Part shown: positions 6,406 to 60,043 of the stretch, in pieces | How the letters are laid out: each line of letters opens with the position of its first letter | Numbering within the stretch: position 1 is the stretch's first letter | From: Mustelus asterias | Lineage: Eukaryota | Assembly: GCF_964213995.1 (NCBI RefSeq) | Contig: NC_135808.1 | Span: 23,498,001 to 23,562,000, forward strand | DNA length: 64,000 bases | Direction of reading: 5' to 3' | Program-made: the position numbers and the translations under genes | The notes under the pieces: generated by a model | What the model saw: the letters and a program-made list of their open reading frames with translations, nothing else | Told to the model about the DNA's origin: nothing | Databases searched by the model: none

Positions 6406-7377
6406 TTGCATGGGGAATCAGTCATTGACCTCCCAGTAGGACTCATTGAATATGAGCTCCCTGGGAATTGGTAATTAACCAACCAGATTTAATTTACTTA
6501 AAGGCTGCTGGTTTAGGTCAGAATCTGGCTTTTACTCTACATTTGAACGTGTAAAAGATCTATGAGTTGAATTTCCACTTGGACCCACATTCCCTAATTT
6601 ACTGTCGCACTCAGACTGAAGCCTCACCTGACTGATCATGCATTTCTAACTTCACACATAACAGAATGACACATCCAATCACACTTGCATTAATATCCTA
6701 ACATTTCTAGCCATGGCGGGGAGGTGGAGGAGGGGGAGTTAGGGGACCTCTTGTGGAGTCTTTGCTTCCACCCCAATGCACGGTCCCAGGGCCTTTGGTA
6801 ACGGCCAGCCTGTGACCTGTCATTTTAAAGAAATCAGACTCAAGGGCAAAGACACCACCAAGCGTAAGTGAGCAAATTAATCTATATTTTCCTTTCTCTA
6901 AAATATACATCAATACCAAATTACACCCATGACGATTTATGCTAATTTGGTGGTGTGTGTGTTGTGTGTATGTTTCCTAACACTACATCTCATTCTCAAT
7001 CATTTTCCTCACAAACATCCCATTAGTTTCCATCTGATCCCATCCCTGAGCCCTGGAGATTATTGACTGTCCAATATAACATTTTCTGTTTTGACATTGA
7101 ATTTGATTTCTGGCACTAACATGTTTGCTCCTTAACTCAGGTAACATCTCATTACTTCAGCAGAAGACTATATGAAACTGATATTTTCCAAATCATCTCA
7201 AATTCAGATAGCCCCATGTATCGTTTATTTCTTAACATTCATAGAAAGGAGCTAACGTGTATTTTAATTCCCAGCAAATTTCTCCTTGAGCATTTTAAAG
7301 TATTAATTCACATGTATTAAATTCATGAATTCCAATTTCTTCTGTTGTTTTTTCATGTTTCTTTAAATGAGTGTATG

Positions 7378-7590: not shown

Positions 7591-8759
7591 TTCTGATAGT
7601 AGATTCTGAAAGCCATGATAGTATTAAATGGTGTAGCAGACTCGAGGGGCTGAATAGTCTGCTCCTGCCCCTAATTCTTATGTCATTATGTTTTTATATT
7701 ATCATCTCACATCTTATCAATTTGATTCTGAGATGTTGCAGTTCTCTTTATTATGGATGTCAAATCTACTGAGAAGTTTTGGACCCAGCTCATTGCCTTC
7801 AGTGTTTTTTCATGCAACGCAAAGGTGAGTGTATTGGGAGGGAGTTGGACTGAAATGCAGGAGGATTATGCTTCGCGATACTACCTCCGAGCTATTAGTC
7901 CCGATATCTGAGGAAGGATGCTAATGCGAAAGAAGCATTTTAGAAAATGTATGAACATGTACTGGAAGCATTAGACTATCCCCTATCCCGATGGACTGGT
8001 GGGTTTGAAACAAAATGATTGGCACAATACTGTTCCCTGCTTCTTTTAAAGTATTAGTGCTGATACAGTATGTGTAGATTTAAGTGATTCCAATAGGTGT
8101 TGGGTTGGACATGTGAAGGTATGGGGGCGGAGGATGCTGGGGGCCGAGGCCAGTTAATATTTCATTCCAAATTCCCGATGTTTTCCACGTTTAAAACTTG
8201 GTCAGTGCTCTCATTCCTCACATATTTTAACATAAGTGCATGTGGGATCATAGGAACATCGGCACAGCAGTAGGCCATTCGGCCTGCTCCGCCATTCAAT
8301 AAAACCGGACACGTCAATATATTTTACACGTTATGTCGGTATAGCGCGCAAGAAACAATACTTTTCACTGCATACAGATATATGAGTCAAAATCAAATCA
8401 AACATACTAACCCCAAACCCTTCCGATATGTTAATGGGAAACATATTCAACTCTTCCATAAAAATACTCAATTTTCCTGCCCGACTGCAGAATGCGGCCA
8501 TGACACTATGTCGTTTTGCAATTTTAATTCTGTTACGTTGTTTCCTCGCTCTGTCAGAGAGGAAATACCGGAACCCATAACACCTTCTTTCTTAACACTG
8601 ATCCACGCCCAGTATTTTTTTCACATTTCGGTCTTTGCTGTCAGCTGGAACAACACAGGCTACTGTGTACAAGCACATCGAGCAGGGCAGATTCTAATCT
8701 CGATATTTCACGCTCTTGGACTGTTAGTTGCAGCATTTCCAAACTCCATTCGCAACAAT

Positions 8760-9337
8760 GGGCGGCAAGGCGGCACAGTGGTTAGCACTGCTGCGTCACA
8801 GTGGTTAGCACTGCTGCGTCACGGTGGTTAGCACTGCTGCGTCACGGTGGTGAGCACTGCTGCGTCACGGTGGTTAGCACTGCTGCGTCACGGTGGTTAT
8901 CACTGCTGCGTCACGGTGGTGAGCACTGCTGCGTCACGGTGGTTAGCACTGCTGCGTCACAGTGGTGAGCACTGCTGCGTCACGGTGGTGAGCACTGCTG
9001 CGTCACGGTGGTGAGCACTGCTGCGTCACGGTGGTTAGCACTGCTGCATCACGGTGGTTAGGCACTGCTGCGTCACGGTGCTAGGGACCCGGATTCAAAA
9101 TCCCGTTTGGGTCACTGTCTGTGTGGGGACTGTACAATCTCCCCGAGCCGGCATCGGTTTCCTCCCACAGTCCAACAATGTGCGGGTTAGGTGGATTGGT
9201 CATGCTAAATTGCTCCTTAGTGTCAGGGAAACTAGCTAGCTTAAGTGCATGGGTTTAAGGGAATAGGACCTGGGTAGGATTATGGTCGGTGCAGACTCGA
9301 TGGGCCGAATGGCCTCCTTTATTATAGGGATTCTATG
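8760..9337 (+). mobile_element. HE1-type SINE with a 13 x 23-bp internal tandem amplification (8776-9075)
   Basis: Unit CGGTGGTTAGCACTGCTGCGTCA, then a normal HE1 body and CR1-like tail. Confidence 0.88.
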
Positions 9338-12017: not shown

Positions 12018-12916
12018 CTATTGTTTATTAATGAAACGGATAATTGATGTAAATGGATATTTCAGCGCGCTCTTGAACTGATCCCTGAACTTAGACTGAG
12101 TCACTCCATATATAAATGCATTTGTGCAGCAACTTAAATCCACCAGCATAACTCCAACTTGATCAAATATATATAAAGAATCGTTATAATTTGCGGGATT
12201 AGTTCCTGAAATTATATATAAGAAATTTGTAACATATAAAAACCATAAGAGTATGAAGCTCCCAGATATGGTGAAGAGTAAAATCATAGACTTCCTTCTG
12301 CCCTCCATCTCTGGGTCACTGCGATTATCGCATTTGCTCTGACCCCTCAGTCCCTTCCGTACTCGACTGGTCACTAAAATATATCTGACTGTAAGAGTGT
12401 TGAGCAACAGAATTGAAACATATGGGATCAATGGAGTTGAAACCGTTTCAAACCATTCAAATGCCACCCATCCTGGGTCAGTATAATAACTTGGTTTTTC
12501 ATTACAGAACCAGGGGACATTGTCGATTATCTCTCTAGGTTCAAACCTAAAGTAGATCGGAATGGCTTTTAAACACATCAGGGTGCAAGTGGTTGATAGT
12601 ACTGCAGCTGCAGTTTGTTCGGTGCAGTATTTCGTTTTCAGCTTCTGACAACAAATGGCCACAAATCGATCGAAGGAGAAAGTGACGGTGAACCAGACAG
12701 AACAGTTCACAGTTGCATAAAGCAGTACAAAGATAATAGTACATGCAGGGGTGATGTTCAGTAAAGATCCTGGGAAAAAGTAGCTGATCCGATATAATAT
12801 GACCGCAGTGATAATCACCAGAAGATCTGCCGCTGCCATGGCCACGAGGTACCGAGTAGTACAGCTGGAGAGACCGCAGTTTCTCCGGGACAGGATCACG
12901 ATTGCCATTAAATTAA
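12018..12916 (-). CDS. gpr139-like: Gene A exon 2: GPR139/GPR142-like class A GPCR (end of TM1 to C-terminus); spliced protein 320 aa
   Basis: Open frame with NLMAIVIL (TM1), YLVAMAAADLL (TM2), SVWFTVTFSFDRFVAICC (TM3, DRF), WFC (ECL2), ILLFTISGSFILLW (TM6), CCTNAFIY and KFR (TM7/H8). Acceptor TCCCTCCCATACAG|TT at 12918-12917, phase 1. AATAAA on - strand at 11982-11987. Confidence 0.9.
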
Positions 12917-14434
12917 CTGTATGGGAGGGATAAAAATGTAGACTGTAAGTTACTGATCCAGCATTCTCCATATCGGCTGGGTTGGTGTGGGGCAACAGCT
13001 GATTGTTTGAAATAGATCTTTATTTACCCAAAGACAATTTAAACTTGCAAATATCTGTGCTTAACAGAATTAGGATGGTGGGCTCTGGGAGGGGTTATCA
13101 TAATTTCTTTTATTTTTTAATAAACTTCAAATAATCTATTGCACATACGTCACAGACACAGTTCTCAGACTTTGGGCAATGTGAAAGGTGAAAGAGGGAT
13201 GAGCACAACTTCAAGGCTAAGGCAAGTGTCTTCATCACACTGGTTATGTGCAAGGGGAAAGTAGTAGTTTTCTTGCTTCACCTCCACCTTGCACGCAATA
13301 CACAAACTCCACCACCGCCTCAACCCCATCCAAACAGAAAGGAACCCGAAGCAGCCATCAGTCCCTGCATGTCCAGACAACCACGCCCAGTAACGAAGTT
13401 AGAACGGAACAGAACTGCTCCTGAAGAGTGCTATGAAGCCTCGCCCGCCCTACCTCCGCCGAATGTGGAGAGAGCCCTGACAACTGGGCTACTCTGAGAA
13501 CAAGAAACTTGTCAGGTATTACAGAAGCATGAAACGAAGTTTATAATATCACGGTAATTGGGGAAAGTCTAACTTGTGTTGCCTGCCCGATGCCAAAGTT
13601 CAAGACATCTGCTGAAGTCTGGAGAGGAAATTGCAGTGGGATCCACTTACTATGGTCCAGTATGGATCAGCGACATAGACAGGATAAATAAAGACGTTGT
13701 GCAGAGGCAAAACGGGATCCTCGGCAGCAGATTATGAAGTAAAACCTGAACGGTCATAACGTCGAGCCACGTGCAAATTAGCATAGGAAAATCGTATCTG
13801 AGGGCTGAAGGCATGGAGCAAACGGTGTGGGCGAACATAGTTCCGGTTCGGGGGCATTGGCAGAATAATTGCGGAAAGTTGCACCTTAACCATTGAAACG
13901 GTTAACACCTGACTTAGAAACAGATCATTCGGACCATCGAGCCTGCACCGACAATAATCCTACCCAGGCCTTATCCCCGGAACACCAAGTATTTATCCTG
14001 CTAATCTCGCTGACACAAAGGGGCAATTAAGAATGGCCAATTAAGCTAATCCACACAAATTCGGACTATGCTGAGGCTAGTTTTCTTGTGAGGAGTGGAA
14101 AGTAGAGAGGTTGTACTTGACCTGGTATTCTGCGATTAAATGGAAATAATTAATCATCCAATAGTGCAGGAGCCCCGAGGTAGCAGCGACTAAATTACAA
14201 TTGAATTTTGCACTCCGTTTCAGGGGTGGAGAAGTGGGTCTGCGAATTTCAACTGATCAATGGGATCAAGCCATCGAATCTGGGAAAAGATCGCCAATAA
14301 ATGAACCGAGACAAGGCAAAAAAGGAAGGTATTTTTAGAGGAACGGAAGAACAATCTATGACAGGAAGGGAGAGAGAGCATAAATCCCACAGTGAACCAA
14401 TGGATGACACCAGTGTTTATGAAAATAATAAGAT

Positions 14435-17454: not shown

Positions 17455-18852
17455 GATTGAAGCAAAATACTGCAGATGCTGAAACCTGAAACAAAATCAG
17501 AAAAGGCTGCAAAATCTCAGCAGGTCTGACAGCATCTGTGGCAAGATAATAGAGCCAACGTTTCGAGTTTGGATGAACCTTCTCCAGAGCTCAAGGCAAA
17601 CAAAATAGAACTAGATTTATGCTGTAAGGGTAGGTGACGGGGTGGGGGTTGCTCTCTAATTGAAGCGGACAGAATAGACAAAAATATATGCAAAAGGTAA
17701 TAAAAGCTGAGAATGGTGCTAACATCATCCACTAGTAGATCGGGATGTGGCAGCTTTCACAATGGTTCATGTGCACCTCCTTCAACCTGATCTATTGTAT
17801 TTGCTGGACACAATGCGGTCCACTCTACATTAGAGAGACCAACTGCAGGCAGTGTGGCCGCATTATAGAGAACATTTTATCGTCCACAAGCAGGAGCCAG
17901 GCCTTCCTCTCACTTGCCATTTTAACACCTCATCCTTCTCTCATGTGCACATGTCCGTCCTTTGCCTGTGGCAATGTTTGTGTGAAGCCCTATGCAAATT
18001 GGAGGAACAGCACCTCATCTTCCGAGGAGGCACTTTACAGCCTTCCAGACTGAAGATAGAGTTGAATAAATTCAGAGAATGAACTCTTTGCTCCACCTCC
18101 ACTCCATTTATTTCATTTTATTTCATATACTTTTCTCTTATGAATCCATTTTTATTACTTAATTTTTTTTATAATCAGTTTGATTTTTAATTTAATCCAT
18201 CGTTTCATTTGTGTACTCTCTAATCTTCCTTTCCGTCTCCACCTACCCCTTCCCCCCAAACACACACACACAAACGCACACATCCCACTCAGGTCATCTG
18301 CCACATACCTCAGCTTGTCCTTTGACATTTTACACCTGTGTTCTCTTTTTTTAGGTATTCAGATCGCTTAGTGGATGTTGCTAGCACGATTCTCAGCATT
18401 TATCAAAGCTCACATTCCCTTTTGTCCTTTGTCCATGGAATCCCTATCAGTTCTGTGCCTCTCTCTCCCCTCACCATTGCACTATACATCTCGTCCTATT
18501 TTCTATGTCTTCAGCTCTGAAGGAACGTTATCATTCAGCTCTATTCTGTCTCAACAGATGCTGTAAGAAGTCTCACAACACCAGGTTAAAGTCCAACAGG
18601 TGTATTTGGTAGCAAATACCATAAGCTTTATATATACGATAAATACGAAAGCTTACGGTATTTGCTACCAAATAAACCTGTTGGACTTTAACCTGGTCGA
18701 AAGCTTATGGTATTTGCTACCAAATAAACCTGTTGGACTTTAACCTGGTGTTGTGAGCCTTCTTACTGTGTTCACCCCAGTCCAACGCCGGCATCTCCAC
18801 ATCAACAGATGCTGTCAGACTTGTTGAGATTTCCAGCATTTGTGTTTTTTTT
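17455..18852 (+). mobile_element. Penelope-like element with an inverted terminal copy and GIY-YIG endonuclease remnant
   Basis: FMCTSFNLIYCICWTQCGPLYIRET (GIY-YIG) and KLEEQHLIF..GTLQP. The two ends are reverse complements (CTCAGCAGGTCTGACAGCATCTG). Confidence 0.8.
18565..18801. mobile_element. Short palindromic Penelope-derived element nested in a Penelope terminus
   Basis: Inverted arms (GTAAGAAG...ACACCAGGTTAAAGTCCAACAGG), internal partial duplication, 14-bp duplication TCAACAGATGCTGT at 18551-18564 and 18802-18815. Confidence 0.75.
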
Positions 18853-20224: not shown

Positions 20225-20710
20225 AACCCTCAAACGAATATAATCCCTCAAATTGATAAGAGTGTCGCAAACAAATACAAACCCTCAAACTGATACAATC
20301 CCTCAAACAAATACAGACATTCAAACTAATACAGTCCCTCAAACTGATTCAGGCCATCAAAGTAATACAATCCCTGAAAATGATACAGTCCCTCAAAATA
20401 ATAGCCTGTCAAATTAATATATTCACTCAAACTGTTACAGTCCCTCAAACTAATGCAGCCCATCAATCTAATGAAATCCCCCAAACTAATACAATCCTTC
20501 AAACTGATAGTCTTCAACCGAAAAAAGTCCCTCAGACAAATGCTTTCCACATATTAATACAATGCTTCCAACGGATACAGTCCTTCAAACGAATACAATC
20601 CCTCAAAGTAATACAATCCTTCGAACTGATCAATGGCCGCAAACAAATACAGTCCCTCAAACTAATACTGTCCACAAACTAAGACAGTCCCTCAACCTAA
20701 TACAGTGCCA
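20225..20710. repeat. Degenerate 18-bp minisatellite (CCCTCAAACTAATACAGT)n upstream of gene A
   Basis: Repeated CCCTCAAAC with 18-nt period. Confidence 0.85.
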
Positions 20711-27885: not shown

Positions 27886-29307
27886 GGTCTGTATTGCCAT
27901 TAATGGGTTTACCATGTGAAAACAAACAGATTAAAGAAGGCCAGGGCTATCGCTCAGCAAGTATGGACCCACTGAAATCCATAAGCACTTGGGGCTCAGT
28001 CATTTTGGAATAGAACCATAGAAAATTTCAGCTCAGAAACCGGCCTTTTGGCCCTTCTTGTCTGTGCCGAACCATTTTTTGCCCAGTCCCACTGACCTGC
28101 ACTTGGAATAGAACCATAGAAAATTTTCTTCAATTTTCTTAAAGGTTTATTTGTTAGTGTTACAAGTAGGCTTATAGTAACACTACAGTGTGAAAATCCC
28201 CTAGTCGCCACACCCCGGCACCTGTTGGGGTACATTGGGGTAGAATGTAGCCTGGCCAAAGCACTGAACCTTCACGTCTTTTGTCTATGGGAGGAAACCA
28301 GCGCATCCGCACAGACAGTCATCCAAGCTGGGAACCAAACCTAGGTCCCTGGCGCTATGATTCAGCAGTGCTAACAACTGTGCCAATTGAAACCTCAACC
28401 GTGGAGAATTAATAACAGTGCACAATGACAGATCACAGGACTATACCATACCAATCCCAATGTATTAGAAAGAATCAGATGAGTATATTGCAGATGTTAC
28501 AGATATAACCTTCCAATGTTTCACCATGTCGGGAACTACTTGATCAATAAGGTTCTGTTCACTCAAGTTAAAGAAGTGCACAAAGGCCAACTCCCAGTTC
28601 AAGATATGAAAGGTGCAGATATGATGCAGTTGGCTGGCGAGAAGCCAGACATCTTAAACAATCCTGAGATTGGTGATGGCGTAATACATTCTATTAAGCA
28701 GCGTGCTCTGTTGGTGTGGTTGGGTTACCGAGTTGTGCAGGTTAGGTGGATTGGCCGTGCTAAATTGCCCCTTAGTGTCAGGAAGACTAGTTAGGCTAAT
28801 ACAGGGGGTTATGGGGACAGGGCCTGGGTGAGGTTGTGGTCGTTCCAGACGATAGGCTGAATGGCCTCCTTCTGAACTGTACGATTCTATGACTCTCATA
28901 AACCTGAGCTGCAAAGGTGTCTGGGAAAGGGGAGCAGAGATTGAATGTGATGGAAGTGTGGGCCAAGTTTTCCACGCCACAAAGAGGTGAGGGCACCCTG
29001 CTTATCCTTATAACTGTGTGCAAGATATTCAGCTGTTCCATTGACCCAGGCCTGCGAAGAATGACCAGTTAGAGCCATAGCAGTGACGGAAATCAGAGGC
29101 TGCTCGGCACTTTAAATAATTGAAGCAGATTGTTTTCTTCCACTTGTAACGTGTCTCCAATGCAGCCAATAGTGAGCAAGTTTGTGCTATGCGGATATTG
29201 GTGAGTGAATTTCGTTTGAATTTTAAACTTTAAATCAACACATGCTGCGTCAGAAGTTGAATGGTAAACCATAATTTCTAGCTACATTTTCGTTTTCTCT
29301 CTTACAG

Positions 29308-30173
29308 TTAAGTGTAGTGGCGATTGCAGTCCTCACCTGGGGGAAGGGCAGCCTTTCCACTTTCACCACTCGCTACATGGTGGCCATGGCAATGGTAGAT
29401 CTGCGAGTCATTATCAATGCTGTCATATTCTTAGGAATCAGTTCTTATTATTTGCTGTCATCTTTTTGGGGCATCGCCCCTGTTTGCAGTGTTAGCTTCA
29501 TCCTGATTTATGCAGCTACGGAATGTTCTGTCTGGTTCATTGTCGTTTTCTCCTTTGATAGATTTGAGACCATTTGTTGCTCGAAGATTGAAACAAAATA
29601 TTGCTCCGAGAAAACGGCAGTTGTTGTTCTTTCGACGACTTGAACTCTACTCTGTTTAAAAGCCAACCTGGTCAATTCAGACCTGAACCTGGAGAGGTAA
29701 TTGACAATGTTCCCTTGTTCCGTAATGACAAGCAAAGCTATTATACTGATCTTGGGTGGCATTTAATTTATTTGATAGCATTTTTACAACATTGCTCCAG
29801 TTGACTACAATTATGTTGCTCAATGCTATGACAGTCAGATATATTTTAGTGACGTGACGAGTCCTTAAGGGACTGAGGGGTCAGAACCAGGGAGAGAATC
29901 GCAGTGACCCAGAGGTGGAGAGCAGAAGGAAGTCTGTGATTTTGCTCTTCCCCTTTTCTGGCAGTCTCATACTTCAATGGATTTTAAATGGAATCAAGTT
30001 GTCGTGTGTTGGAGTGCAGGAGGTAATCACGAATATTACAATGATTCCTTGAAAGTCTTTGTGAAAATCAGACCGATGCTGGTGGATTTAAATTGCGATA
30101 CAAACGTATTTATTATGTAGTGGCCCAATGCAAGTTCAAAGAACAGTTCAAAAGTCTGGTGAAATATTCGGTT
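29308..30173 (+). pseudogene. GPR139-like exon 2 pseudogene (P), truncated at its 3' end by an ERV
   Basis: Acceptor TTTTCTCTCTTACAG at 29306-29307. Recognisable TTRYMVAMA, ECSVWF..FSFDRF..ICC, IDNVP, SRRKSVILLF, YNDS and KFKEQFKSLVKY. Extra base just after the acceptor, TGA at 29641, further stops and frameshifts. Confidence 0.88.
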
Positions 30174-31399: not shown

Positions 31400-32600
31400 T
31401 ACTGCATTCTCTGAGAGTTCTGGAGTTGTTATTATCATCATAGTGGCTACAGCTCCTGGTATAACTGCATTTCCAAACCGTGCACGGCAACACTTTATCA
31501 TGGCAAATACCAGACATAGGGTAACGATAACGGCCAAAAATACGATTAACCCATGTACTAGGGACCTACCTATTGCTCCTAAACATCACCCCACCCAACC
31601 AAAAATTCTCGAAGAATCTGGTTCCTTAAACATCTTATCCTTCTTTTGGACATGGTCCACTAAACTACCAATTTCATCAGAATACTTGGGGATGTATGTG
31701 CAGCATTCAGACCTTATTATCGCACATGTCCCACCTTTTTCAGCTAACAAATAATCTAGGGCCATCCTGTTCTGTAAAGTCACTGTCCTAATGGCTCTCA
31801 TCTCATTGCTTAACCCTTTTATAGCTTTTGTGATTTCATTTGCCACCACTTCTAATAATTTAGCTATTTTTATCATTTCGACTGAGGTAAATCCCATTCC
31901 AACAGAGGGAAAAAGGGTGGAGAAGAATTGTTGTGTTTCTGTAAGTGCGCGTTTAGACCAATAAAGGGGGAGATGTGCTAGGGAGGGCAAATGATGGATA
32001 TAAGACATTACATAGCCCAGGTAACATGACCCTTCCCAATTTAATGGCAACCAGGGATATGCTTGATGTCCATACAACAAAGTATGTTCCATTTAAGGTT
32101 CACAAACTGATACCATTTCCTTCAGTTATAGTGTTTGCAAATGTGCGGATCAGTGAAATGTTACACTTAGTTGTTCCTGCATTCCATCCACCTGTCTGTA
32201 TGCTGACCAGACAAATTGTCCCATTGGGTCTCCCTTGTTCTGTTGTGTGAGTAAGGAACAAGACAGGGGGCTTCTGAGAAAGGTTATAATTAGCTTGGAA
32301 CCTTCCATTAAATTTATTCATATTATGCCCAGCTGATTTCCAATGTTCCCTGCTATTCACTCGTCGTTCCTGAAGAAGGACTATTGTTCTGATTTTGGGC
32401 GACATTTTCTGATTCAGCCACCATTCTGATTCATTGAAAGGAATTGGACTTAAAGGAATACCTCCTTCGGGTGCGTCGGTACATGAGTACACACCCAACA
32501 GCTGGAAGCGGTGATATCCCTGGCATAGGTGTATCACATGTGCATGAAGGTATTTATGTGCAATTCACACAATACATGTATTATATATGTCACAAGAAAA
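31400..32600 (-). pseudogene. env: ERV-2 env (disrupted; ends approximate)
   Basis: WLPLNWEGSCYLG, cleavage SKR/A, ISD LQNRMALDYLLAEKGGTC, CX6CC (CAIIRSECC), hydrophobic TM near 31430-31560. Confidence 0.9.
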
Positions 32601-32622
32601 TAGAGTCTTAATGTCCAGTTTC

Positions 32623-33550
32623 CTATATCGATGAGGCTGATGATTCCTTTTCCTCGGGACCTGGAGCCCACTTGCAATGCGATGCGTGGATCCATGACGG
32701 TCTTTCCTTCACCTTGATCGCAGTGTTGGTGGTCAGCAAGACGTGAGAGGGGCCCTCAAATCGTGGGTGAAGACTATTCTCTCTTTTAAACACCTTCACA
32801 TGAAAGACGTCGCCCAGTTCTAAGTTGTGGCACCTCCCTTCTGTGGGATCAGTCTGAGCTTCCTTTACCTGGGAATGGAAACTAGAAATACATTTTGTTA
32901 ACGCAATACAATCGTTTAGCACATTTTCTTCCATTCTGTGGATATTCAAATGCTTAACAGAAATAAAAAGGCAAATGTTACGGGCTTGTGTGGCAATAGC
33001 CCAATTGTTCTGTTTGTTGCTGACCGCATTACCATTACTGCTCAGGGTAACAGTTGAACCGATTTTATTCCGGTTTCCACACAATGTTTGCCAGCTTGTT
33101 CTTCAGCATTCCATTATATCTCTATACCAGTCCAGCTGACTGTGGAGGATAACTGCAATGAAAATGCTGATTGATTCGCAATGCTTGACACATTTCTTTC
33201 ATATCTGTCCCGTTAAAATGTGATCCATTATCACTTGAAAGTTGTAGAGGTATGCCAAATCGTGGCACAATTTATTTTAGGAAATACTTAGCAACAATAG
33301 TAGCATCATTATTTTTAAATGGAAAGGCTTCAAGCCATCTAGGAAATACATCAATAATTACTAATATACACTTAACTCCCATGCACGGGGGTAATTCAAT
33401 AAAATCAATTTGCAGATTTATAAAGGGTCCTGTTGGATTTGGGTGGGAGGCAGCCTATACCTTTTCTGTTTTTCCCAGATTTATGGTTTGACAGGAAACA
33501 CATCTTTCAGTAATTTGTTTGTGGTTGCTGAAATATCTGGTGCATACCAT
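32623..33550 (-). pseudogene. pol: ERV-2 integrase remnant
   Basis: GPFINLQIDFIELP, DVFPRWLEAFP, PRFGIPLQLSSDNGSHF, YPPQSAGLV, GPSHVLLTTNTAIKV...WIHASHCK. Confidence 0.88.
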
Positions 33551-35897: not shown

Positions 35898-37340
35898 GTG
35901 CTCCCACTATTGAAGAAAGGTTGCAGAGACAAGCCAGGGAAAGTCAGACCAGTGAGTCTCATGTCTGTAGTTGGAAAACTACTGAAGAAGATTCTGAAGG
36001 AGAGAATCTATCTCCATTTGGAGAGGCAAGGTTTGGTCAGGGCTAGTCGGCATAGTTTTGTCAGTGGGAGGTCATGCCGAACAAATTTGATTTTTTTTGA
36101 GCATGTAACGAAGTGAGTGGATGAGGGTAGTGCGGTTGATGTAGTTTACATGGATTTCAGCAAAGCCTTTGACAACGTCCCACATGGGAGACTTTCTAAG
36201 AAGGCCAATGCACATGTGATGCAAGGTGATCTGACAAGGTTGACTCATAATTGTCTGAGCGGTAGGAGACAGAGGTGACAGATGGCTGCTTTAGTGACTG
36301 GAGGCCAATGAGCAATGGTGTACCACAAGGATCTTTGCTGGGTCCACTATTGTTCGTCATTTATATAAAAGTCATAGATGACTATGTGGGGCGTAGGATC
36401 AGTAAATTTCCCGATGACACAAAGATTGGCCTGGAAGTTAACAATGAGTTTGAGTGTCTTGGGTTACAGGAAGAGATTGATGCGATGGTCGAATGGACGG
36501 AAAAGTGGCAGATGGAACTTAACCCCGAAAAGTGTGAGGTGATGCATTTTGGAAGGAGTAATTTTACAAGGAAGTATGTTATGAAAGGTCTGACACTGGG
36601 AAGTTCCGAAGAACAAAGGGACCTTGGTGTGTTTGTCCATAGATCTCTGAAGGCCAAAAGGCAGGTAAATAGGGTGGTAAAAAAGGCACATGGTACACTC
36701 GCCTTTATCAACCGGGGCATAGATTACAAAAGCAGAGAGGTCATAATGGAATTGTATAAAACTTTGGTGAGGCCACAGCTGGAGTACTGTGTGCCGTTCT
36801 GGTCGCCACAGTATAGGAAGGACGTGAACGCACTGGAGGGGGTGCAGAGGAGATTCACCTGGAAGCTGCCTGGAATGGAACATTTAAGTTATGAAGAGAG
36901 GTCGGAAAGGCTTTGGTTGTTTTCGTTGGAGCAGAGAAGACTGAGCGTTGACCTGATTGAGGTGTTCTATATTATGAGGGGCATGGACAGGATGGATAGG
37001 GAGCAGCTGTTTCCCATAGTTGAAGGGTCAGTTACGAGGGGACACAAGTTAAAAGTGAGGGATGGGAGTTTTAATGGGGATGTGAGGAAAAATATTTTTA
37101 CTCAGAGGGTGGTGAGAGCCTGGAATGCACTGACTGGGAGTGTAGTGGAGGTGGGGTGCCTCACATCCTTTAAAAAGTACCTGAATGAGTACTTGACACG
37201 CCATGACATTCAGGGCGATGGGCCGCGTGCTGGTAAGTGGGATTAGATGGGCAGTTCAGGGCATTTCATGCGTCGGTGCAGGCTTAATGGGCCAAAAGGA
37301 TTCTTCTGCACTGCAGTCTTCTGTGATTCTGTGATTCTGT
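35898..37340 (+). mobile_element. 5'-truncated CR1 LINE (RT and 3' UTR)
   Basis: RPVSLMSVVGK, GVPQGSLLGP, FPDD, LVRPQLEYC; (TTCTGTGA)n tail. Confidence 0.9.
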
Positions 37341-39019: not shown

Positions 39020-39465
39020 TTCTCCTTCTACACTGTCCACATGAATGACTCCCAGCACAGATCCAGCACGGGGTTAGATACAGAGTAAAGCTTCCTCTCC
39101 ACTCTCCCCATTAAACACTGCAAGGACATGTAGAGCACAGGGTTAGATACAGGATAATGCTCCCTCTGTACTCTGCGCTCAAACAGTCCCAGGGCAGGTA
39201 GAGCACGGAGTTAGTTTGAGAGTAAAGCCCATTTAAACTGTCACAATCGAACACTCCTAAGACAGGTACAGCACTGAGAAAGAGATATAATAAGTCTCCT
39301 TTTACACTGTCCCTATCAAACACTGACAGGACACGTACAAAACGAGATTACATGCAGACTAAAAGTCCCTCTACACTGTCCGACCAAAAACTCCCAGGGC
39401 AGCAGCAACACGGGGGTAAATGCAGAGTATAGCTGCATTTTCAATGAACCATCAAACATTCCCAG
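39020..39465. repeat. Tandem satellite, unit about 66-70 bp (..CAAACACTCCCAGGGCAGGTACAGCACGGGGTTAGATACAGAGTAAAG..)
   Basis: About 6 degenerate copies, ending abruptly at the ERV-1 5' LTR. Confidence 0.8.
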
Positions 39466-40056
39466 TGAAGTGAGGAAAAACATACAGATGAGTACACTTT
39501 AAAAATGACTGCCTGGCACATAAAGCGTTAACTGGGAGAGAGACCATAAAAGTGACACTGACTCTTAGCCCAGCAACTACTTGTAAATTAAAACATGCAT
39601 GAATTAGATACTGCAGGAAGCCAGTGGAAATAGGGACAGTCCCAGGACAAAAGGGTCTGTTAAAGAGATTAGCCACAAATGGGAATGGGAATAAGTAAAT
39701 GCAGGAAAGCCAATTATTTTATGAATGAGCCGAAACTAAACCACTGATGGTCACTGACGTAGGAAATGTATCCATTCATAGAACAATGCGATGTTAACAT
39801 GCTTATGTCTGTATCTGTCTGTATTTGTCTATAACGATGTGTTAACAATCGATCACCGACTTGATTACAACGATGTGATAATGGCTAAATGTCTGGTCCA
39901 TCTATTGTGTAAATGGTATAAAGATGGACCGCTCCTGTTGTATCATTGAGAGAAGGTTTGCTGCTTGTTAGTGCCTTGTCTCCACGAAGCTTCGTTAAAA
40001 TAATACTGTATTCTTGAAACCTTCATGCCTGACTCAGTGGTACATTTCCCACAAAA
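39466..40056 (+). repeat. ERV-1 5' LTR
   Basis: Direct repeat of 46307-46935; GGTATAAAAG TATA box near 39916; followed by a PBS. Confidence 0.88.
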
Positions 40057-40765: not shown

Positions 40766-42105
40766 ATGGCAGATAATGAAGTTAAAAGGGGACCTGCAGG
40801 ATCCTTCATTGAAATTTACATGACAAACAGGAAAGAGTTAATAAAGAGAATGCAAAACGACGGCTGGGATACTTCTCAGACCTTAGAACAGCAGAGAAAG
40901 TGGATAGATAAAGAAAAGAGAAAGAAGACAAAGAAGATAGGAGTAATATTATCACATCAATTAGCTGGTCTAATTGAGCAAGTAGTCACCTCGACTAAGA
41001 AGTGGAGTGAAGATAAAGAAAGGATTAGAGAATTAGAATCCCGAGTGAGGGAACAGGAGAAGCAAAATCAGGTTTTAGAAGAAAAGCAATGGAGAGGGGA
41101 AACTGTTCCTCTAACTCCTTATGAGTCCACACAGCAGGGACCAACCACTCCTTCAGAGGAGTGAGAAGCGCTAGAACACAACTTAGCGCCAGTAACCCGA
41201 GGGGGAACAAATGCACGACCAAAGGCAACTTATCAACCCTTCACCCCAGGTGAGAGACAGCAGATAATGGCTTCCCTGGGTAAATTACAACCCAGAAGCG
41301 CAAGTACTAAATTCTGGGAATAATTAGACACAATCTGGATAGGACACCAATTACACCTGAGAGACATATACCAGCTGGACAGGGCAGCCTGTCCAGCGGA
41401 TAAGTGGAGGCATGTAGCTGGTGGACCAGCAGCTCCTCCAGCACAGCATTATAATGGGGGACGGTGGACACATGCAGTCTCCCTAGCATCAGAGATAGAT
41501 GCCCAACAGGCACCCTTCACCCAGTTCAAAGCAGAGATTCAGAGGGTATTAGGGAATGCTTCCACTAACTGGAGAAGACTTACCACAACAAAACAGTTAA
41601 AAGGGGAAGGAGCTTCTGAATACGGGGAACGATTGTTACAGGTATATCAAGAGTGCTCAGGACAAGGGAACCCAGGTCGAGGGGATTGAGCATTCATCCA
41701 GGCTTTTAAGGATGGACTCTCTAGCGCTCACCAGGTCATCCTAAAAATGGGAGTGATAATGTCCCAAGATTACGATGAATTGGTAGCGTGGGCCAGCGGA
41801 GTACCAGGAGAAGAAAAATCCCAGGCAAGAACAAGGCCAGAAAGAGTAGCAGCTTACAGTAATGGGAATGGAACAAAGTCTAAACTGACTTGACTCAATT
41901 GTGGTCGGCAAGGACACTTTGCGAGGGATTGCGGGACTCCACGGAAAGGGAACAGGTTTTGAACAGTGGGAAACATTGCAGCCACTGTAATAAATGTGGA
42001 CACACAGAAGCAGTGTGTTGGAATAAGCATGGAAAACCCTCGACCCGATCCATGACCACAGCAGAACCAGAGGAACCACAGGACCTCCGGGGTCAGCAAG
42101 ATTGA
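40766..42105 (+). pseudogene. gag: ERV-1 gag (disrupted)
   Basis: Coiled-coil-like N-terminus; two CCHC knuckles (*LNCGRQGHFARDC near 41890, first Cys mutated to TGA, and CSHCNKCGHTEAVC); stops and frameshifts. Confidence 0.8.
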
Positions 42106-42109
42106 CGGT

Positions 42110-43983
42110 CTGCAGCCCCCATTCACAAGGGTAAGAAGGAGGGAAGAATTTACGTGTCAGCACTAGTAGGGGGCAGACAATGTGAGATGCTAGTGGACAA
42201 AGCAGCGTCCATATCTGTCACCGACCTACCCTTCCCCACTACAAATAAAATGATTTCCCTGACTGGGATAGGAGGGAACAAAACACCCGCCTACCTGAGC
42301 GAGACCACGTTAGTAGAGATAAATAATCTGTATATACCAATGAGGTTTTGTGTGTGCAAAAATAACGAGGGTACAATAATGGGAAATGATCTGATGAAAG
42401 AATATGAGATTCTGCTCGACTGTTGAAAAGGAGAATTAATCTGGCCAAGACAGGACGGTCGGAAAACTAGAACAGGGAAACTTACAAGTCACCTCGAAAC
42501 TATTAAGGTAGCCACAGTCACCACCAGAAATTGGGAATTAGAAACAGGAGGGTTCGGAGCCATCTGTGCCCCTGTCCCCGGAATATGGTCGAAAACGAAG
42601 TTAGATACTGGTTTGACTAAAACAGACCCAATAAAGGTACCGGGACCAGAGCATAAGCCACACCGACAATACCCAATCAAACCCGAGGCAGAGAAAGCTG
42701 TAGTGGAGATAGTTAAAGGGTTAGTGGAAAGGGGGATTCTGAGAGAAACCACAAGCACCACTAACTCCCCAACATGGCCAGTGAGCAAGTCTGACGGAAG
42801 CTATAGGCTCACGATAGATTACACCGGACTCAATAAAGTCACGTCCAAATTGCACCCCATCGTAGCAAGCCCTTCGACAATCCTGAATGGACTGAATGGA
42901 GCATAAAATATTCACAGTATTGGACATAGCCAACGGATTCTGGTCCTTACCATTTGTTCCTGAATCCCAAGACAAATTTGCCTTTCCAGTGGGTGAAAAG
43001 CAGTACACTTGGACTCGTTTACCACAGGGATTCCACAACAGCCCAGCTATATTCCATAGAGCAATGAGTGACATCCTGAACAGAGTAGAACTGCCAGAGG
43101 GTAGTATGGTCCTACAATATGTAGATGATATCGTGATAGCTTCAGAGTCCAAGTCAGGACATCAAGAAGCCTTACATTTAGTACTGAATGAATTAAAAGC
43201 TGCAGGGTTAAAGGTGAGCCCCAAAATGGCACAAATCGGGAAAACACAGGTCCTATACCGAGGACACGTTATATCCCAAGGACTTAAAGAAATGCCAACA
43301 GACTGACAGAAGGCAGTACAACAAATGCCGCGACCCGTCACCATAAGAGGGGTCAGAAAGGTGCAAGGACTATTCAACTATAGCCAGAGTTTCAACCCAG
43401 GGTTCACAAAATTAGCAGAACCCATACAGAGACTCGTCAGAGGGGGAAAACCAGCTTAAGATCCCGTAGAATGGGGACTCGAGCAGGAAGAGGCTTATCA
43501 TAGAATCATAGAATTATAGAAACCCGACAGTGCAGAAGGAGGCCATTCGGCCCATCGAGTCTGCACCGACCACAATCCCACCCAGGCCCTACCCCCACAT
43601 ATTTAGCCTCTAATCCCGCTAACCTACGCATCTCAGGACTCTAAGGGGCAATTTTTAACCTGGCCAATCAACCTAACCCGCACATCTTTGGACTGTGGGA
43701 GGAAACCGGAGCACCCGGAGGAAACCCACGCAGACACGAGGAGAATGTGCAAACTCCACACAGACAGTGACCCGAGCCGGGAATCGAACCTGGGACCCTG
43801 GAGCTGTGAAGCAGCAGTGCTAACCACTGTGCTACCGTGCCGCCCCCTATACTGAACTAAAAACTGACATCAGCCCCTGGACGAGGATTACCCAATTCTA
43901 ATAAGGACTTCCATATCCATTGTAGAAATGAGAGAGGGTTCTATTCCGCCGTGGTAACACAAGATCATGGCGACAGAAATAGA
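42110..43983 (+). pseudogene. pol: ERV-1 protease, reverse transcriptase and connection region (disrupted; SINE inserted)
   Basis: MLVDKAASIS (degenerate DTGA), QYPI, NSPTWPV, YRLTIDY, VLDIANGFWS, LPQGFHNSP, QYVDD, TSAP..GLP..KDFHI. Confidence 0.9.
43498..43846 (-). mobile_element. Young full-length HE1-type SINE inserted in ERV-1 pol
   Basis: Complete element with CpGs retained; pol frame resumes (YTELK) after it. Confidence 0.9.
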
Positions 43984-44239
43984 TGATGTGGAGATGCCGG
44001 CGTTGGACTGGGGTAAACACAGTAAGAAGTTTAACAACACCAGGTTAAAGTCCAACAGGTTTATTTGGTAGCAAAAGCCACACAAGCTTTCGGAGCTCCA
44101 AGCCCCTTCTTCAGATGAGTGGGACTTCTGAATTCCCACTAACCTGAAGAAGGGGCTTGGAGGTCCGAAAGCTTGTGTGGCTTTTGCTACCAAATAAACC
44201 TGTTGGACTTTAACCTGGTGTTGTTAAACTTCTTACTGT
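43984..44239. mobile_element. Short palindromic Penelope-derived element (arms about 105 bp) inside ERV-1
   Basis: Near-perfect inverted repeat over 44019-44239; same family as 18565-18801; no TSD. Confidence 0.8.
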
Positions 44240-44254
44240 ATTTGTGATCCACAG

Positions 44255-44508
44255 GCATCCATGTCTTCCAGATGATGACTGGCTGCAACCTGAGGGATGA
44301 TGGGACTACGAGTGCATTCAACCAGTTTGGGTGGGATGGACAGGATGTTCTCAGCTTCGACAAGGATCACATGGTGTGGGTGACCCCAGTGCTCTGGGGA
44401 GATGTCATCAAAAACTATCTTGATAGGGACACTGCCAACAATGAGCGACTCAAACAATTCCTGGAGGTGGACTATATTGAGTAACTGAGGTAATTCCTCA
44501 AGTTCGGG
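44255..44508 (+). pseudogene. MHC class I heavy-chain alpha-2 domain exon fragment embedded in ERV pol
   Basis: After the acceptor GATCCACAG (phase 1): GIHVFQMMTGCNLRDDGTTSAFNQFGWDGQDVLSFDKDHMVWVTPVLWGDVIKNYLDRDTANNERLKQFLEVDYIE*LR*FLKFG. Matches the class I alpha-2 pattern (GxHxxQxMxGC...DGxDxxxF...W...LExxCxEWL). Second Cys is Tyr; two stops. Confidence 0.9.
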
Positions 44509-44619
44509 ACATATGAAGTTATAATTAGTGGAGACACCTGTGCCTGTATAGACATAAGAGGGAAAGGTGTCTGGAAACACTGGACACAACTAAAATTACA
44601 CAAGGGAACAAATAAGTAA
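44509..44619 (+). pseudogene. pol: ERV-1 integrase C-terminal GPY/F-like remnant
   Basis: (G)TYEVIISGDTCACIDIRGKGVWKHWTQLK fits the GPYxV...WxHxxxLK integrase tail pattern, also seen in ERV-2 as GPSHVLL...WIHASHCK. Confidence 0.7.
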
Positions 44620-44699
44620 TTAAATTGATGAACTAACAGAACTGATTTCCTCAACACAGGCAAAGACTGCAAACAAGAACGACTGGTGCGCGCGGGTTG

Positions 44700-46253
44700 A
44701 TAGATAATATAACTTGTAAAGATTATATGAATTATCGTGTTAGGTTTGATATTTGATCGTTGTGAATATGTATTTAATCGCGTATGTAACTGTACTACTT
44801 TGCATTGCCGCGACTGTAAATTTAACTGGATTGGAGGATAACTTGTTTTACAAAGCTCACATAAATTAAGACGGGAATCGAACTGTATGTTACCCGTTAG
44901 CACAATTGGTAGAAGCCCTATTTGTAGCCACCCCTGGGTGGACCCCTCATGACTTATGTACTGTAGATACATCAGATACACCCTGCAAGGGACAAATTGG
45001 CAAATATAAAAGAGGTATACAGGGGAGACGTGTGGGACTTGTAAATCCCACAGATCCTGTGTTCAGGGGGTTCCAACAGGTGGGAGGAATAGCTTGTTCA
45101 GATACTGCAAGCTATCCGCTTTGTTTTATGGGGCAGGGAGGGGATGTGCCTATGCCTTGGTCCCAAAGAATTATTCCTGCGTACAGATGCAGTGTGTCCG
45201 TCAACATTGTCAGATTAATAAGGGACAGTTTACTTGCACTTGTGATGAACAGAAATGTCTCAATATAACTGCGGACAATGCAATGGAACTCACGTAATCT
45301 CAGCCAAATGGACATACCCATTTGATACTTACCAGGTGGTGGGGTCAAACGGGGAGTCAAGTAAACCGAACAATTGGCAATATGAACAAACTCATAATCA
45401 AGACACTAAATGTTACCGGGCTAAGAAGGGATATGTGTTCCTCTTCAATGGTACTTACATGACAGAAACACCAAACCTCCCAAACCATTTTGCAGTCGGA
45501 ACAATAGGACCACTGACTGTTCCATGCCCTCAGAAGGGGCATATTCGGAGGAGAATAGTAACTCGGGCTATCAGCAAAAATTCTGCGCTGACTGGGAAGC
45601 CCCGGGCACAATGGGATCCTCACTGGGATATGGGTTCCTTGGAGCCTTATCCCTGCGGAGGGGCGGGGGGTGGGCGGGGTGGGGGGGGGGGGGGTGGTGG
45701 GGGAGGGCAGCAGGAGTGATTAGTGCAAAGAATAGGAATCATATTGTTTGTGGACTAACAGTCCTGGGAAACAGCACTTCAAAAGCACTGGAGGCTGTTA
45801 ACCAAGAAATGGCTGAACTGAGATTATATGCACAGCAGACACAATATGCAGTGGACTATCAGTTAGCACAACAAGGGGGAGTGTGTACAATTATAGGCAA
45901 TAAATGCATAACCCATGTCACGGACGAGTCCTATAACATTACACAGGTCATCAATAGCAACAGAAAAACAACTTGATAGCTTCAGACAGGGACCCAAGAA
46001 AAGATGTAACTGGCTGGAATGGTTAGTAGGGGGGTTCTGGGAGTCTTACCTATGACATGGATTGGTCATACTCGTTTCAATTGTAATTGTCTGTTGTCTG
46101 ACTGTTGGATGCTTTAAAGTCTGTTTTAAAATAATGTTGGCTAGAATTGTGCCAGGAGCCAGTGTATACATCGAAGAAGAAAACCCGATGAAGATCCCCG
46201 AAGACATCAGAAGAAATGAAGAAGGAAAGAAGAACAAAGAATTATACATGTAA
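44700..46253 (+). pseudogene. env: ERV-1 env (frameshifted; start approximate)
   Basis: Cys-rich SU fragments, basic cleavage-like RRRIVTRA, heptad ALEAVNQEMAELR, ISD-like VDYQLAQQGGVCTIIGNKC, hydrophobic anchor near 46062-46120. Confidence 0.85.
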
Positions 46254-46306: not shown

Positions 46307-46935
46307 TGAAGTGGGAAAAATATACAGATGGGTACACATAAAATGGCTGTCTGGCACATAAACAGTCACCTCGGAAAGAGACATTAAACAGGCACTGACG
46401 TTCAGTACAGACAACCACCTGAGATTAAAGGACAGACAGCTATTCAAAGTTCAAGATGCAGGAATCAAATCCTGCAGGAAGCCAGCCAAGGCTTGAGGCA
46501 CTCTTTCGGATAAGGACAATAGGGTTGGATAACGAAATTAGCTACAGGTGGGATTGGAATACCTAACTGCAGGAAAGCCAATTACTGTAAATTACGATAT
46601 GAATAGATTGAAACTAAAACCACTGATGGCCACTGACAAAGCAAATGTATCCATTCATAGAACAATGTGATGTTAACATGTTGATGTCTGTATCTGTCCG
46701 TATTTGTCTACAGCAATGTGTTAACAATCGATCACCTACTTGATTACAACGATGTGATAATGGCTAGATGTCCGGTCCAGCCATTGTGTAAAGGGTATAA
46801 AGATGGACTACTCCTATAGTCTCATTGAGAGAAGGTTTGTTGCTTGTTAGTGCCTTTTCTTCACGAAGCTTCGTTAAAATAAAACTGTATTCTTGAAACC
46901 TTCAAGCCTGACTCAGTGGTACACTTCCCACAACA
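46307..46935 (+). repeat. ERV-1 3' LTR
   Basis: Preceded by a polypurine tract; TATA box near 46795; AATAAA near 46878; imperfect terminal inverted repeat TGAAGTGGGAA/TTCCCACAACA. Confidence 0.9.
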
Positions 46936-57067: not shown

Positions 57068-57520
57068 TACTGGGAGTAACTGTCACTGCAGTATTGTACC
57101 GAGACTGGATGTTAACCGAAATGTACCACTTGACCCCCAATGGTCATGATTACTGGGTGTCTCTTTCACTGTAGAATTGCACAAAGTGTTGGTCATTAAC
57201 TAGAGTGGAACACATGATCCCAGTGATTATGTATTACTGGGGGTGTCTGTCACTGAAGCATTGTACTGCGTATGGATCACTAACTAGACTATAACACCTG
57301 ATCAGGACCACATATTATTGTGAGTAACTGTCTCACAGTGTGGGTCTTAACTGGAATGGAACTCCCGACCTCAGTGACCATATATTACAGGGAGCATCTT
57401 TCACTGTGGAATTGTACTGAGCGTGTGTCTCTAACTGGAATGGAATTCCTGATGCGAGTAACCACGCATTGCTGGGTATATTCGTCATTGTGGAATTGTA
57501 CTGAGAGGTTTACCTACGTG
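57068..57520. repeat. Degenerate tandem repeat, unit about 83 bp, about 6 copies, in the gene C intron
   Basis: TACTGGG..TGTCACTG..GAATTGTAC recurs near 57068, 57151, 57235, 57315, 57386 and 57470. Confidence 0.7.
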
Positions 57521-59102
57521 AGTGGAACCAAGTGGTTTCTCTCATGAAACTGCTGCTTTAGGTGAATGATCTCTCCAATCCATGGAGCCGTCACTGTGAT
57601 TCACGGATGTTACCGATGGCAATGGAGGAATCCTTTGCTGTTGTGTGACATTTTCTATTACTTGCATAAAATAGAATATATTCGTGTTACTGAAAGAAGA
57701 GACATGTGGAGTGTTTTGTTTTGCACTCCTCAGGACACTTTGCATCAATATCTACCTCAGGACTATGCCCTGATGTCAGCAAGACAAAAAACTTTATCAT
57801 CTCACTTTTTTCAGCAACACTTCCGTTCTGTACTATCAGATGACTATTTATATTCGTACTGCTCTGTTCCATTCTGAACTGCATTAACAGAAACTCATGG
57901 TAATTGTTTTCTGAGAGGCACACCTTCAAGGGAGCACTGGTACTATCCCCTATTCTGATGATTATTAATGAAAATTCTTTACCTTCTCATTATCATATTA
58001 TCAAATATTTCCTCCCTTACCAACATTTGATTATTATTAAGATTTTCCTTCAATGTATTCACTATTGTTGAACATTGAATTGGAGAACTTCATCAATTTA
58101 ATTTTTTCCTCCCTGTTATCTCTGACTACATGGGTTCACAACCTCCATTCAAAAGATTGTTATGAACCCCTTCACCTTGCCCGGATACTGGGACAAAAAG
58201 GTTGTTTTCTGATCCAAGATCTGGCATACATTCCGACCTAGGCCGTCCAGTTACAAACATTTCCACAAACCCGCGGGTCAGAACCAGGGGATGCAGCTGC
58301 AAATGACCTGTGAACTGGCTTCCCAAATGCACCACTAACCCGGGGATGTGGGATTATTCCAAGGGTGTTCCATTGCAATGCCTTGAAAAAAATCAGGATA
58401 CCCTCACAAACCTTGAAGTGGTATTAGACCTAACAATTTCACTCAAATCCCATTCCAACCCCAGACGACGTTCAGTCTTGGGGCTCCAATTACCACATAA
58501 TACTCCAATTCTCAGATCTCTGGTGATCCAATTCTCCCCCAACCTTCCCCCCGCCTCCCTCCCCACTCCCAGCCGTGCAGGGATCCACTCACAGTGAGGA
58601 TCGGAATATCTGCCCAACTGCAGTGGAGGCAGGGCTGCGGATGGGGGGTGGGGGGGAGGGTGCGGGGTGATTCCAAAGGGTCTGAATGGCATCTAACCCA
58701 GTGTTGGGGGATCTGTAGCCCAAGGGTACAGGGATTGCGAAAGCTGGGTGTATTTAAATGGAATCAAATAAGGAAAAAAACGTGCCTGGCCAGGGTAACA
58801 TCTGTGAATCACATTCAATCAGAGACTTCTGTCATCGTTAAATAATTAACATTCCATCTCGTCTACTTGAGTGGCTGTTGGTCCCTTCTCTCTCGCCCAA
58901 TCTCTTTCTATCTGGCAGTCAGCAGTTTGAAGATGGGATTGAGATACTTTAACGAATATCCCCGAGCACCACACGCATACACACGCACACGCGCTCACAC
59001 ACACGCACACGCGTGCACACACATGCACTCACTGAATTAGATCACACAACAAGAATGTTTGGTTGATAATTTCTAACCTATTACCCATTATCTCCCTTAC
59101 AG

Positions 59103-60043
59103 TCAATTTACTGACAACTGTGATCCTGTCCCGGGGAATGTGTGGCCTCTCCACCTGCACCACTCGTTATTTGTTCGCCATGACATTGTCTGACCTAACA
59201 TTCAATTTCATTGCGGTGGTACTGTATCGGATCCGTTCATGTTATTTCCCAGGATCTTTTCTGGACATCACCCCTGTGTGTCGTCTTGTCGGTATGCTGC
59301 TTTATGCAGCTGGAAACTGCTCGACCTGGTGTACTGTCATGTTCACCTTTGATCGCTTTGTGGCCATTTGTTGTCAGAAACTGAAAATAAAATATTGCAC
59401 TGAGAAAACTGCAACTGTGGTTCTATCAACAATCTGCATCCTGAGCTGGTTAAAATGCATTCCCTATTACTTTGCATTTCAACCTGGCGTGATAATTAAC
59501 AATACTCCCTGGTTCTGCACAAGGAATCCAAGCTATTTTACTGACCCAGCTTGGGTGGCATTTGACTGGCTTAGTAAGGTTTCAACTCCATTTCTCCCAT
59601 ATATTTTAATTCTGTTGTTCAATGCTCTGACAGTCAGATACATTTTAGTGACCAATCGTGTCCGCAAAGGACTGATGGGTCAGAACAAGGGGGAGAATCA
59701 CATTGACCCAGCGATGGAGAGCAGAAGGAAGTCCATGATTTTACTCTTCACCATATCTGGCAGCTTCATACTTCTGTGGCTTTTATATGTGATCAACTTC
59801 TTATACTATAGAATTACAGGAACTTATCCCGTAGACTACAATGATTCTTCATCTATTTTTAAGGAAGTCGGATCTATGCTGGCTGAATTAAACTGCTGTA
59901 CAAACGCTTTTATTTATGGGGTGACTCAATCTAAGTTCAGGGAGCAGTTCAAGAGTTTAGTGAAATATCCGGTTACATTATTTATTCAATTTATGAATAA
60001 AGAAAGCAAAAGAGGGAAGCTCCTCCATACTTCGATCAATTGA
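59103..60043 (+). CDS. gpr139-like: Gene C exon 2: GPR139/GPR142-like GPCR; spliced protein 334 aa
   Basis: Branch-point-like TTCTAAC at about 59071, polypyrimidine tract, AG at 59101-59102. Open frame with DRF, WFC, CCTNAFIY and KFR. 64+941 = 1005 nt in frame. Confidence 0.9.

Follow-up and report, generated by a model that had tools for sequence, protein, structure and literature searches.

The 64,000-nt stretch of Mustelus asterias DNA analyzed here, referred to as the window, consists of repeat-rich vertebrate DNA and does not contain a single N. Between positions 39466 and 46935 lies an endogenous retrovirus (ERV) whose pol gene is interrupted by a Penelope-like unit followed by an exon of a nonclassical MHC class I (MHC-Ib) gene. 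An initial annotation of this DNA had described these parts, and we found all of them in place. Our analyses confirm that together they form a genuine and well-delimited chimera.

The decayed provirus and its surroundings

The element has the order LTR-gag-pro-RT-(RNase H-IN)-env-LTR and is therefore an endogenous retrovirus, from which RNase H and the integrase core have been deleted; its LTRs and genes are all on the forward strand. The 5' LTR (39466..40056) starts inside a tandem repeat with a 69-nt period, in the middle of a unit, and is followed at position 40059 by a sequence that we take to be PBS-like. The decayed gag gene (40766..41980), which includes a zinc knuckle, contains 5 stops in 405 codons. 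The region encoding the protease and the reverse transcriptase (RT) with its YVDD motif (42106..43498) contains stops and a frameshift, and is 83-91% identical to its relative P0017. Next comes a SINE in reverse orientation (about 43499..43845), of which several further copies are present in the window; the copy at 27.4 kb is 94% identical over 199 nt. Pol continues with the frameshifted start of the RT connection domain (43846..43983; RT_RNaseH_2-like, a weak match with an E value of 0.097), which ends abruptly. On the other side of the insert are the C-terminal tail of integrase (44506..44619; 79-91% identical to P0016, P0044 and P0045), a frameshifted env region (44620..46250, with an approximate 5' boundary) with TM heptad repeats at 45425-45976, and the 3' LTR (46307..46935, with its end at 46932 or 46935), after which a fragment of an unrelated repeat starts. 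With 8 stops in the 872 codons of gag-pro-RT, several frameshifts and a SINE in pol, the ERV is dead, and its pol gene is broken independently of the insert.

The initial annotation let pol break off at 43983, and our alignments place this break in the RT connection domain, where the relatives run straight on into a P-I/V-G/A-Y-Y/F-S motif. According to the alignment offsets, about 640 pol codons (639-640; ~1.9 kb) are absent, and their place is taken by 522-525 nt. The lost part corresponds to the rest of the RT connection domain, RNase H and the integrase core. The annotated absence of the latter two from this ERV was borne out by tblastn searches with pol and integrase relatives, in which neither was found. 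The left half of the provirus matches P0017 and the right half P0016; since these two are 72% identical over their overlap, both halves belong to one broad ERV family.

The two LTRs differ unevenly. They are 78% identical in their upstream part (210/268, 11 gaps) versus 91% in their downstream part (287/315, 1 gap; p=2e-5), and, given this unevenness, they were not identical at birth. The flanks are also discordant. The left flank is the 69-nt tandem repeat that the 5' LTR cuts in mid-unit and that does not recur on the right side of the ERV; the right flank belongs to another, unrelated repeat. The tandem repeat itself (39022-39465) comprises about six and a half diverged units. A proviral target site duplication (TSD) would match at 0 of 4 bases if the 3' LTR ends at 46935, and at 3 of 4 if it ends at 46932. 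We do not prefer the 4-nt TSD implied by the latter end: as judged by eye, the terminal inverted repeat and the 2-nt gap before the PBS-like sequence favor 46935, and the flanks differ. Hence, the matched LTRs and TSD that characterize retroviral transduction and LTR-mediated retroposition are not found here; the other mark of retroposition, host sequence in place of internal ORFs with both LTRs present, is. Because LTRs and flanks are discordant, the locus is a recombinant of two proviruses. The initial annotation had gone further and used the discordant LTRs as support for exon capture between two proviruses. That proviruses recombined somewhere stands; however, the crossover may have occurred away from the MHC insert, and since the LTRs do not locate it there, capture between two proviruses is less well supported than was proposed.

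Several other features are present in the window. Remains of a second, different ERV (about 31500-33500, reverse strand) match the integrase core, MLVIN_C and TLV_coat, and are about 45% identical in integrase to the family of the first. LINE RT fragments (RVT_1), which we take to be CR1-like, are located at 2054-6417 (reverse) and 36266-37246 (forward), and the first region contains an inverted pair of 268 nt with 97% identity (4370-4637 and 5154-5421). Three ORFs encode rhodopsin-family 7TM receptors (PF00001), at 12018-13019 on the reverse strand and at 59036-60043 and, apparently broken, 29275-30000 on the forward strand; they form a local cluster with 78-80% DNA identity over matched stretches. 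Tandem arrays have periods of 23 nt (8724-9114, built from the end of a SINE), 18 nt (20229-20703) and about 84 nt (57113-57505).

The Penelope-like unit and the MHC class I exon

As the initial annotation had it, a palindromic Penelope-derived element directly follows the pol break. It occupies 43984-44239, has 110-nt arms that are identical at 106 of 110 positions, and does not contain an ORF. It is composed of a tail of 31-35 nt, present on one arm only (43984..44018, reverse strand), and of two head-to-head inverted pLTR arms around a central palindrome (44019..44239). This arrangement agrees with the hallmarks of Penelope-like element (PLE) units, namely head-to-head pLTRs, a palindrome at their junction and a one-sided tail with an expected length of 30-40 nt. 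In the units described in excerpts of PMC3846280, one of the inverted pLTRs carries a 31-bp tail and palindromes occur where the inverted copies meet, and hammerhead motifs mark pLTRs according to a passage in PMC4209133. A minimal hammerhead pattern of our own design matched once in the 64 kb, in the left arm, and not at all in 50 shuffled sequences; the right arm contains the same core with one mismatch in a stem. The predicted cut site is 100 nt from the tail end, the corresponding distance in the Anolis element being 85-92 nt, by subtraction from values in excerpts of PMC11167929. An Rfam scan of region 43400-44400 gave no match to a hammerhead family. It did yield 20 matches to miRNA hairpin and snoRNA models, all below the gathering score, which we discarded as hairpin artefacts.

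A second Penelope-like palindromic unit in the window (18554..18804) served as control. It has the same two ends as the copy in the ERV and is flanked by a 14-nt TSD, made up of a 9-nt core and overlaps with the element ends. Its center is rearranged, with a third partial arm and without a hammerhead core; its ends and TSD are kept. The ends of the element are defined from this one control copy, and with that definition the match is exact: the 5' junction of the insert (43984) is the terminal base of the Penelope tail, and the right arm of the ERV copy stops where the tail-less arm of the control stops. Unlike the control, the ERV copy lacks a TSD. Both of its arms carry the same variants relative to the control copy. 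At a distance of 5 nt from the arm, the right flank repeats the first 4 bases of the element, and the control TSD likewise repeats 3; this may indicate that the PLE had first targeted the MHC intron (chance of 4.6% for a single test); a left copy of this right-flank target site is not present. Hairpin-induced breakage was rejected as the origin of the 5' junction, which is located 31-35 nt outside the hairpin. This junction is decisive for how the locus is to be read.

The right arm is followed by an MHC intron-2 remnant with an AG acceptor (44240..44254, forward strand). The stub is 15 nt long, as annotated, or 11 nt if the arm is extended past one mismatch to 44243. Directly after the acceptor, at 44255, starts a 254-nt nonclassical MHC class I alpha-2 exon in phase 1, truncated at its 3' side (44255..44508, forward strand). 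The MHC class I identity given in the initial annotation was corroborated by a match of 44257-44508 to PF00129 (E 2.1e-13; 50.7 bits at a cut-off of 28.3), and the closest solved structure is an MHC class I chain (PDB 6LUP, E 5e-24). The exon is 81-82% identical over 84 residues to class I proteins of Mustelus asterias, and its closest named relatives are shark proteins throughout, the best being from this species. Other details of the annotation also proved accurate: the exon is nearly complete, with ~7 codons absent at the 3' end, it contains two stops (44482-44484 and 44491-44493), and it has lost the second Cys (44473-44475). It therefore lacks the open frame and the full pair of cysteines expected of a functional alpha-2 exon. 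The two stops and the lost Cys all fall in a 7-codon stretch (44473-44493) near the 3' junction, and the first 72 codons are free of stops; this clustering may reflect junction damage or chance. As annotated, no further MHC exon is present in the window (tblastn with six MHC proteins, E<=10).

In a 20-row alpha-2 tree with an unresolved backbone, the exon clustered with P0001 and P0002 (100/99) and away from the classical-type P0013 and P0014. It retains none of the five classical peptide-anchor residues, which we take to be T143, K146, W147, Y159 and Y171 (numbering assumed), unlike P0013 and P0014 as judged by eye; an origin from a classical MHC-Ia (UAA) gene was rejected on these grounds. 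Most of these anchors are also absent from its two nearest relatives, and the donor was therefore nonclassical. The latter relatives, the second unit of Mustelus asterias LOC144497682 (P0001) and P0002, resemble the exon at 81-82% over alpha-2, form the 100/99 clade with it and share its non-classical residues at several anchor positions; the exon differs from them in being an orphan, truncated, with two stops and without the second Cys. P0001, the best MHC match, is annotated as one 726-aa protein with two class I units, and probably represents two neighboring genes fused by annotation. The donor probably belonged to the UBA lineage, to which P0011 and P0012 are presumably also to be assigned; the supported clade around the exon comprises P0001 and P0002 only. 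In excerpts of PMC12562908 and PMC10751288, UBA is described as multicopy and derived from UAA, and in those of the latter, class I genes of elasmobranchs have been mapped to the MHC and nowhere else.

The 3' end of the exon and the integrase tail meet at a Gly codon that belongs to both (44506-44508). The two nearest MHC relatives and 5/5 integrase-tail relatives have this Gly at the corresponding position, and because it is common to both parents, at least 2 bases were probably shared at the junction. This microhomology is seen at the protein level; the residue after the Gly fits neither set of parents. The initial annotation had placed the join correctly and had stressed that it is in frame; however, a shared Gly codon makes the frame automatic. 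We rejected a functional sense of the frame, since no upstream frame feeds the exon and the exon contains two stops. A fused MHC-integrase protein was not found among 16 hits out of 56 candidates (15 MHC, 1 integrase), nor among 7/7 hits of another search (3 MHC, 4 integrase tail), in which, as in any protein search, stop-containing copies are invisible. Among the 150 of 469 matches listed in a further search there was no close fused protein, and 2 of those listed match the tail only. Three matches among these 150 of 469 reach query residue 104-111 at 31-33% identity, which we took as ordinary MHC extensions.

How the chimera may have arisen

The exact coincidence of the left junction with the terminal base of the Penelope tail, together with the natural end of the right arm, counts in favor of PLE transduction. 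We consider it somewhat more probable than not that the chimera arose in a single event in the genome that hinged on the Penelope element, when two PLE-driven routes, both acting on an integrated provirus, are taken jointly. Of the two, we lean tentatively, and short of an even chance, to the possibility that a PLE brought the exon by 5' transduction into a provirus already resident in the genome, with deletion of target DNA.

PLE transduction would have started from a PLE in intron 2 of a nonclassical MHC class I gene, 11-15 nt before the acceptor and antisense to the gene. An antisense read-through RNA may have extended from exon 3 across the end of the intron into the inverted and direct pLTRs. 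The PLE RT would then have been primed at a nick in the ERV pol gene and have begun at the tail site, which would have generated the junction at 43984, before it proceeded through the palindrome and the intron stub into the exon, most of which it copied. The truncated cDNA would have been joined by short microhomology at the Gly codon ~1.9 kb downstream, presumably during repair; the geometry shows that this join deleted RNase H and the integrase core. Finally, a separate recombination between two related proviruses, somewhere, would have given the mismatched LTRs and flanks, and this additional event is needed by PLE transduction.

Some of these steps have parallels in published systems. In Anolis Poseidon, RT initiates internally at two sites bounding the tail (excerpts of PMC11167929), and the tail end is therefore a plausible start for the RT here. 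Initiation at the tail on a read-through RNA would yield a tail, pLTRs and upstream host DNA, which is the order observed. According to excerpts of PMC3846280, PLEs mobilize intron-containing host genes, probably via antisense templates, and can make 5' junctions with microhomology and without a TSD. Against PLE transduction, the Anolis enzyme required RNA up to +172 of the ORF, past the tail (excerpts of PMC11167929), and the donor PLE would therefore have been longer than the unit present here. The RT must also cross a 110-bp hairpin. The size of the target deletion counts against it as well: 1.9 kb would have its parallel in L1 cases, but the truncated L1 insertions in excerpts of PMC11702581, which do show microhomology at the 5' junction, have target-site deletions of only 0-20 bp. 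Further points against it are the single control copy that defines the element ends and the ages of the parts, given below, which fit it imperfectly. Apart from the junction geometry, we infer all steps of PLE transduction.

The other PLE-driven route, which we regard as not very likely by itself, is homology-initiated DNA repair between two PLEs, one in the ERV pol gene and the other in the MHC intron. After a break in the palindrome, the broken end would have invaded the MHC-side copy, copied the exon, and been joined by microhomology to a resected integrase tail. Repair that is begun by homologous recombination and completed by end joining is established, and such an event accounts for both natural PLE ends, the non-matching flanks and the lack of a TSD, requiring neither a read-through RNA nor the crossing of a hairpin; the occurrence of two PLE units in 64 kb also supports it. 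It does require two insertions of the same subfamily plus a rare repair event, and a hybrid signature is lacking, as both arms share the variants that distinguish them from the control copy.

That two loci were joined, in the genome or in the assembly, we consider unlikely. A provirus would have been present downstream in an MHC gene, and a deletion at microhomology would have brought its integrase tail up against exon 3. PLE-PLE recombination, or an assembly join in the 250-nt repeat, would have supplied the left half from another provirus. Such a join explains the uneven LTR divergence and the unrelated flanks without a further event, and fits with the restriction of elasmobranch class I genes to the MHC in excerpts of PMC10751288. 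However, the two halves would have to share ERV family, orientation and gene order by chance, there is no second MHC exon in the window, and the window contains no N.

Similarly unlikely is an earlier capture of the exon, through template switching of the retrovirus or through repair, together with more of the intron than is left now; a PLE would later have inserted in this intron piece with a leftward deletion and erased the 5' junction. The ages of the parts bear on this. The Penelope arms differ at 4 of 110 sites, only 1 of them in the outer ~95. Unique states number 8 in the exon, versus 3 and 4 in the two relatives nearest to it, and its 2 stops in 84 codons, compared with 8/872 in gag-RT, give a Fisher p of 0.22. 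An exon at least as decayed as the virus next to apparently young arms suggests either an older capture or a pseudogene donor, and suits the earlier capture; a pseudogene donor, homogenization of the arms or small numbers could explain the difference, and the ages estimated from arms, LTRs, stops and CpG depletion overlap. An earlier capture would also match the pattern of LTR retroposition, zebrafish included (excerpts of PMC5131818), as well as the Gly common to exon and integrase tail. It requires, however, that two rare events struck the same site; a fused protein was not present in the hits examined (16; 7; 150 of 469 listed), and the LTRs and flanks are unlike those of a clean integration product. 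Still less probable is that a replicating retrovirus caught the exon in frame with the integrase tail and was propagated with it in defective, transducing form, the PLE arriving later and erasing the original 5' junction.

The initial annotation had taken classic retroviral transduction as its lead inference. With a PLE in the donor intron, a deletion or template switch at the 5' junction and an RT switch at the 3' junction, it would account for an intronic 5' and an exonic 3' junction, the common orientation and the presence of both LTRs; yet it is very improbable, because the 5' junction is the PLE tail end to the base, where an intron deletion or template-switch breakpoint has no reason to fall (by chance, an estimated ~3 in 1000 for an assumed 1-kb intron) and where the hairpin, with its base 31-35 nt away, offers no explanation, and because LTRs that differed at birth, the lack of a convincing TSD and of a fused MHC-integrase protein among the listed hits all speak for a weaker reading. 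The alternatives listed in the same annotation, Penelope-mediated transduction and repair capture between proviruses, were rightly included, as were its part identities.

Known capture systems and biological meaning

The closest precedent for PLE transduction is gene capture by a rotifer PLE (excerpts of PMC3846280). As at our locus, host sequence with an intron lies beside inverted pLTRs, a tail and a palindrome, and an antisense template was proposed. The rotifer case differs in that a whole gene is located between pLTRs, with an 8-bp TSD, whereas at our locus the host part is a single truncated exon, found upstream of the two pLTRs, without a TSD and with a 1.9-kb target deletion. In addition, the host is a vertebrate and the target an ERV.

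LTR-mediated retroposition, as described in excerpts of PMC5131818, resembles our locus in that host coding sequence replaces internal ORFs between LTRs and that short similarity occurs at the 3' junction, seen here at the protein level; FAM8A1 in HERV-K is cited there as a case of retroviral gene capture. Those cases are copies of spliced mRNAs with microsimilarity at most junctions (25/29 in Drosophila), whereas our locus has kept intron and PLE, has a PLE terminus as its 5' junction, and shows discordance in both LTRs and flanks. The human HLA class I/ERV16 hybrid HCP5 is, like our locus, a genomic chimera of MHC class I and ERV sequences; according to excerpts of PMC6562477, it is an expressed lncRNA within the MHC in which the HLA promoter and leader are joined to an antisense ERV. 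Here, a sense alpha-2 exon lies in pol with no sign of function. A literature search that reached few subscription papers returned no report of a retrovirus carrying an MHC class I exon, and only the rotifer precedent for PLE transduction of a host exon, with none from a vertebrate. The locus possibly adds a variation to the known capture processes, namely 5' transduction by a Penelope element in a vertebrate; we consider this more probable than retroviral capture while still giving it less than an even chance.

As it stands, the locus is a single non-coding relic, and the chimera is non-functional, being a dead exon within a dead provirus. It places an MHC class I fragment apparently apart from other class I exons, in a group, the elasmobranchs, whose class I genes have been reported only inside the MHC. 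If PLE-free versions exist in multiple copies, they would represent a retrovirus that had captured part of an antigen-presentation gene. If the Penelope route is true, the locus would be a natural vertebrate test case for internal RT initiation at the tail site and for antisense, unspliced PLE templates, and PLEs would be an agent of exon shuffling in sharks.
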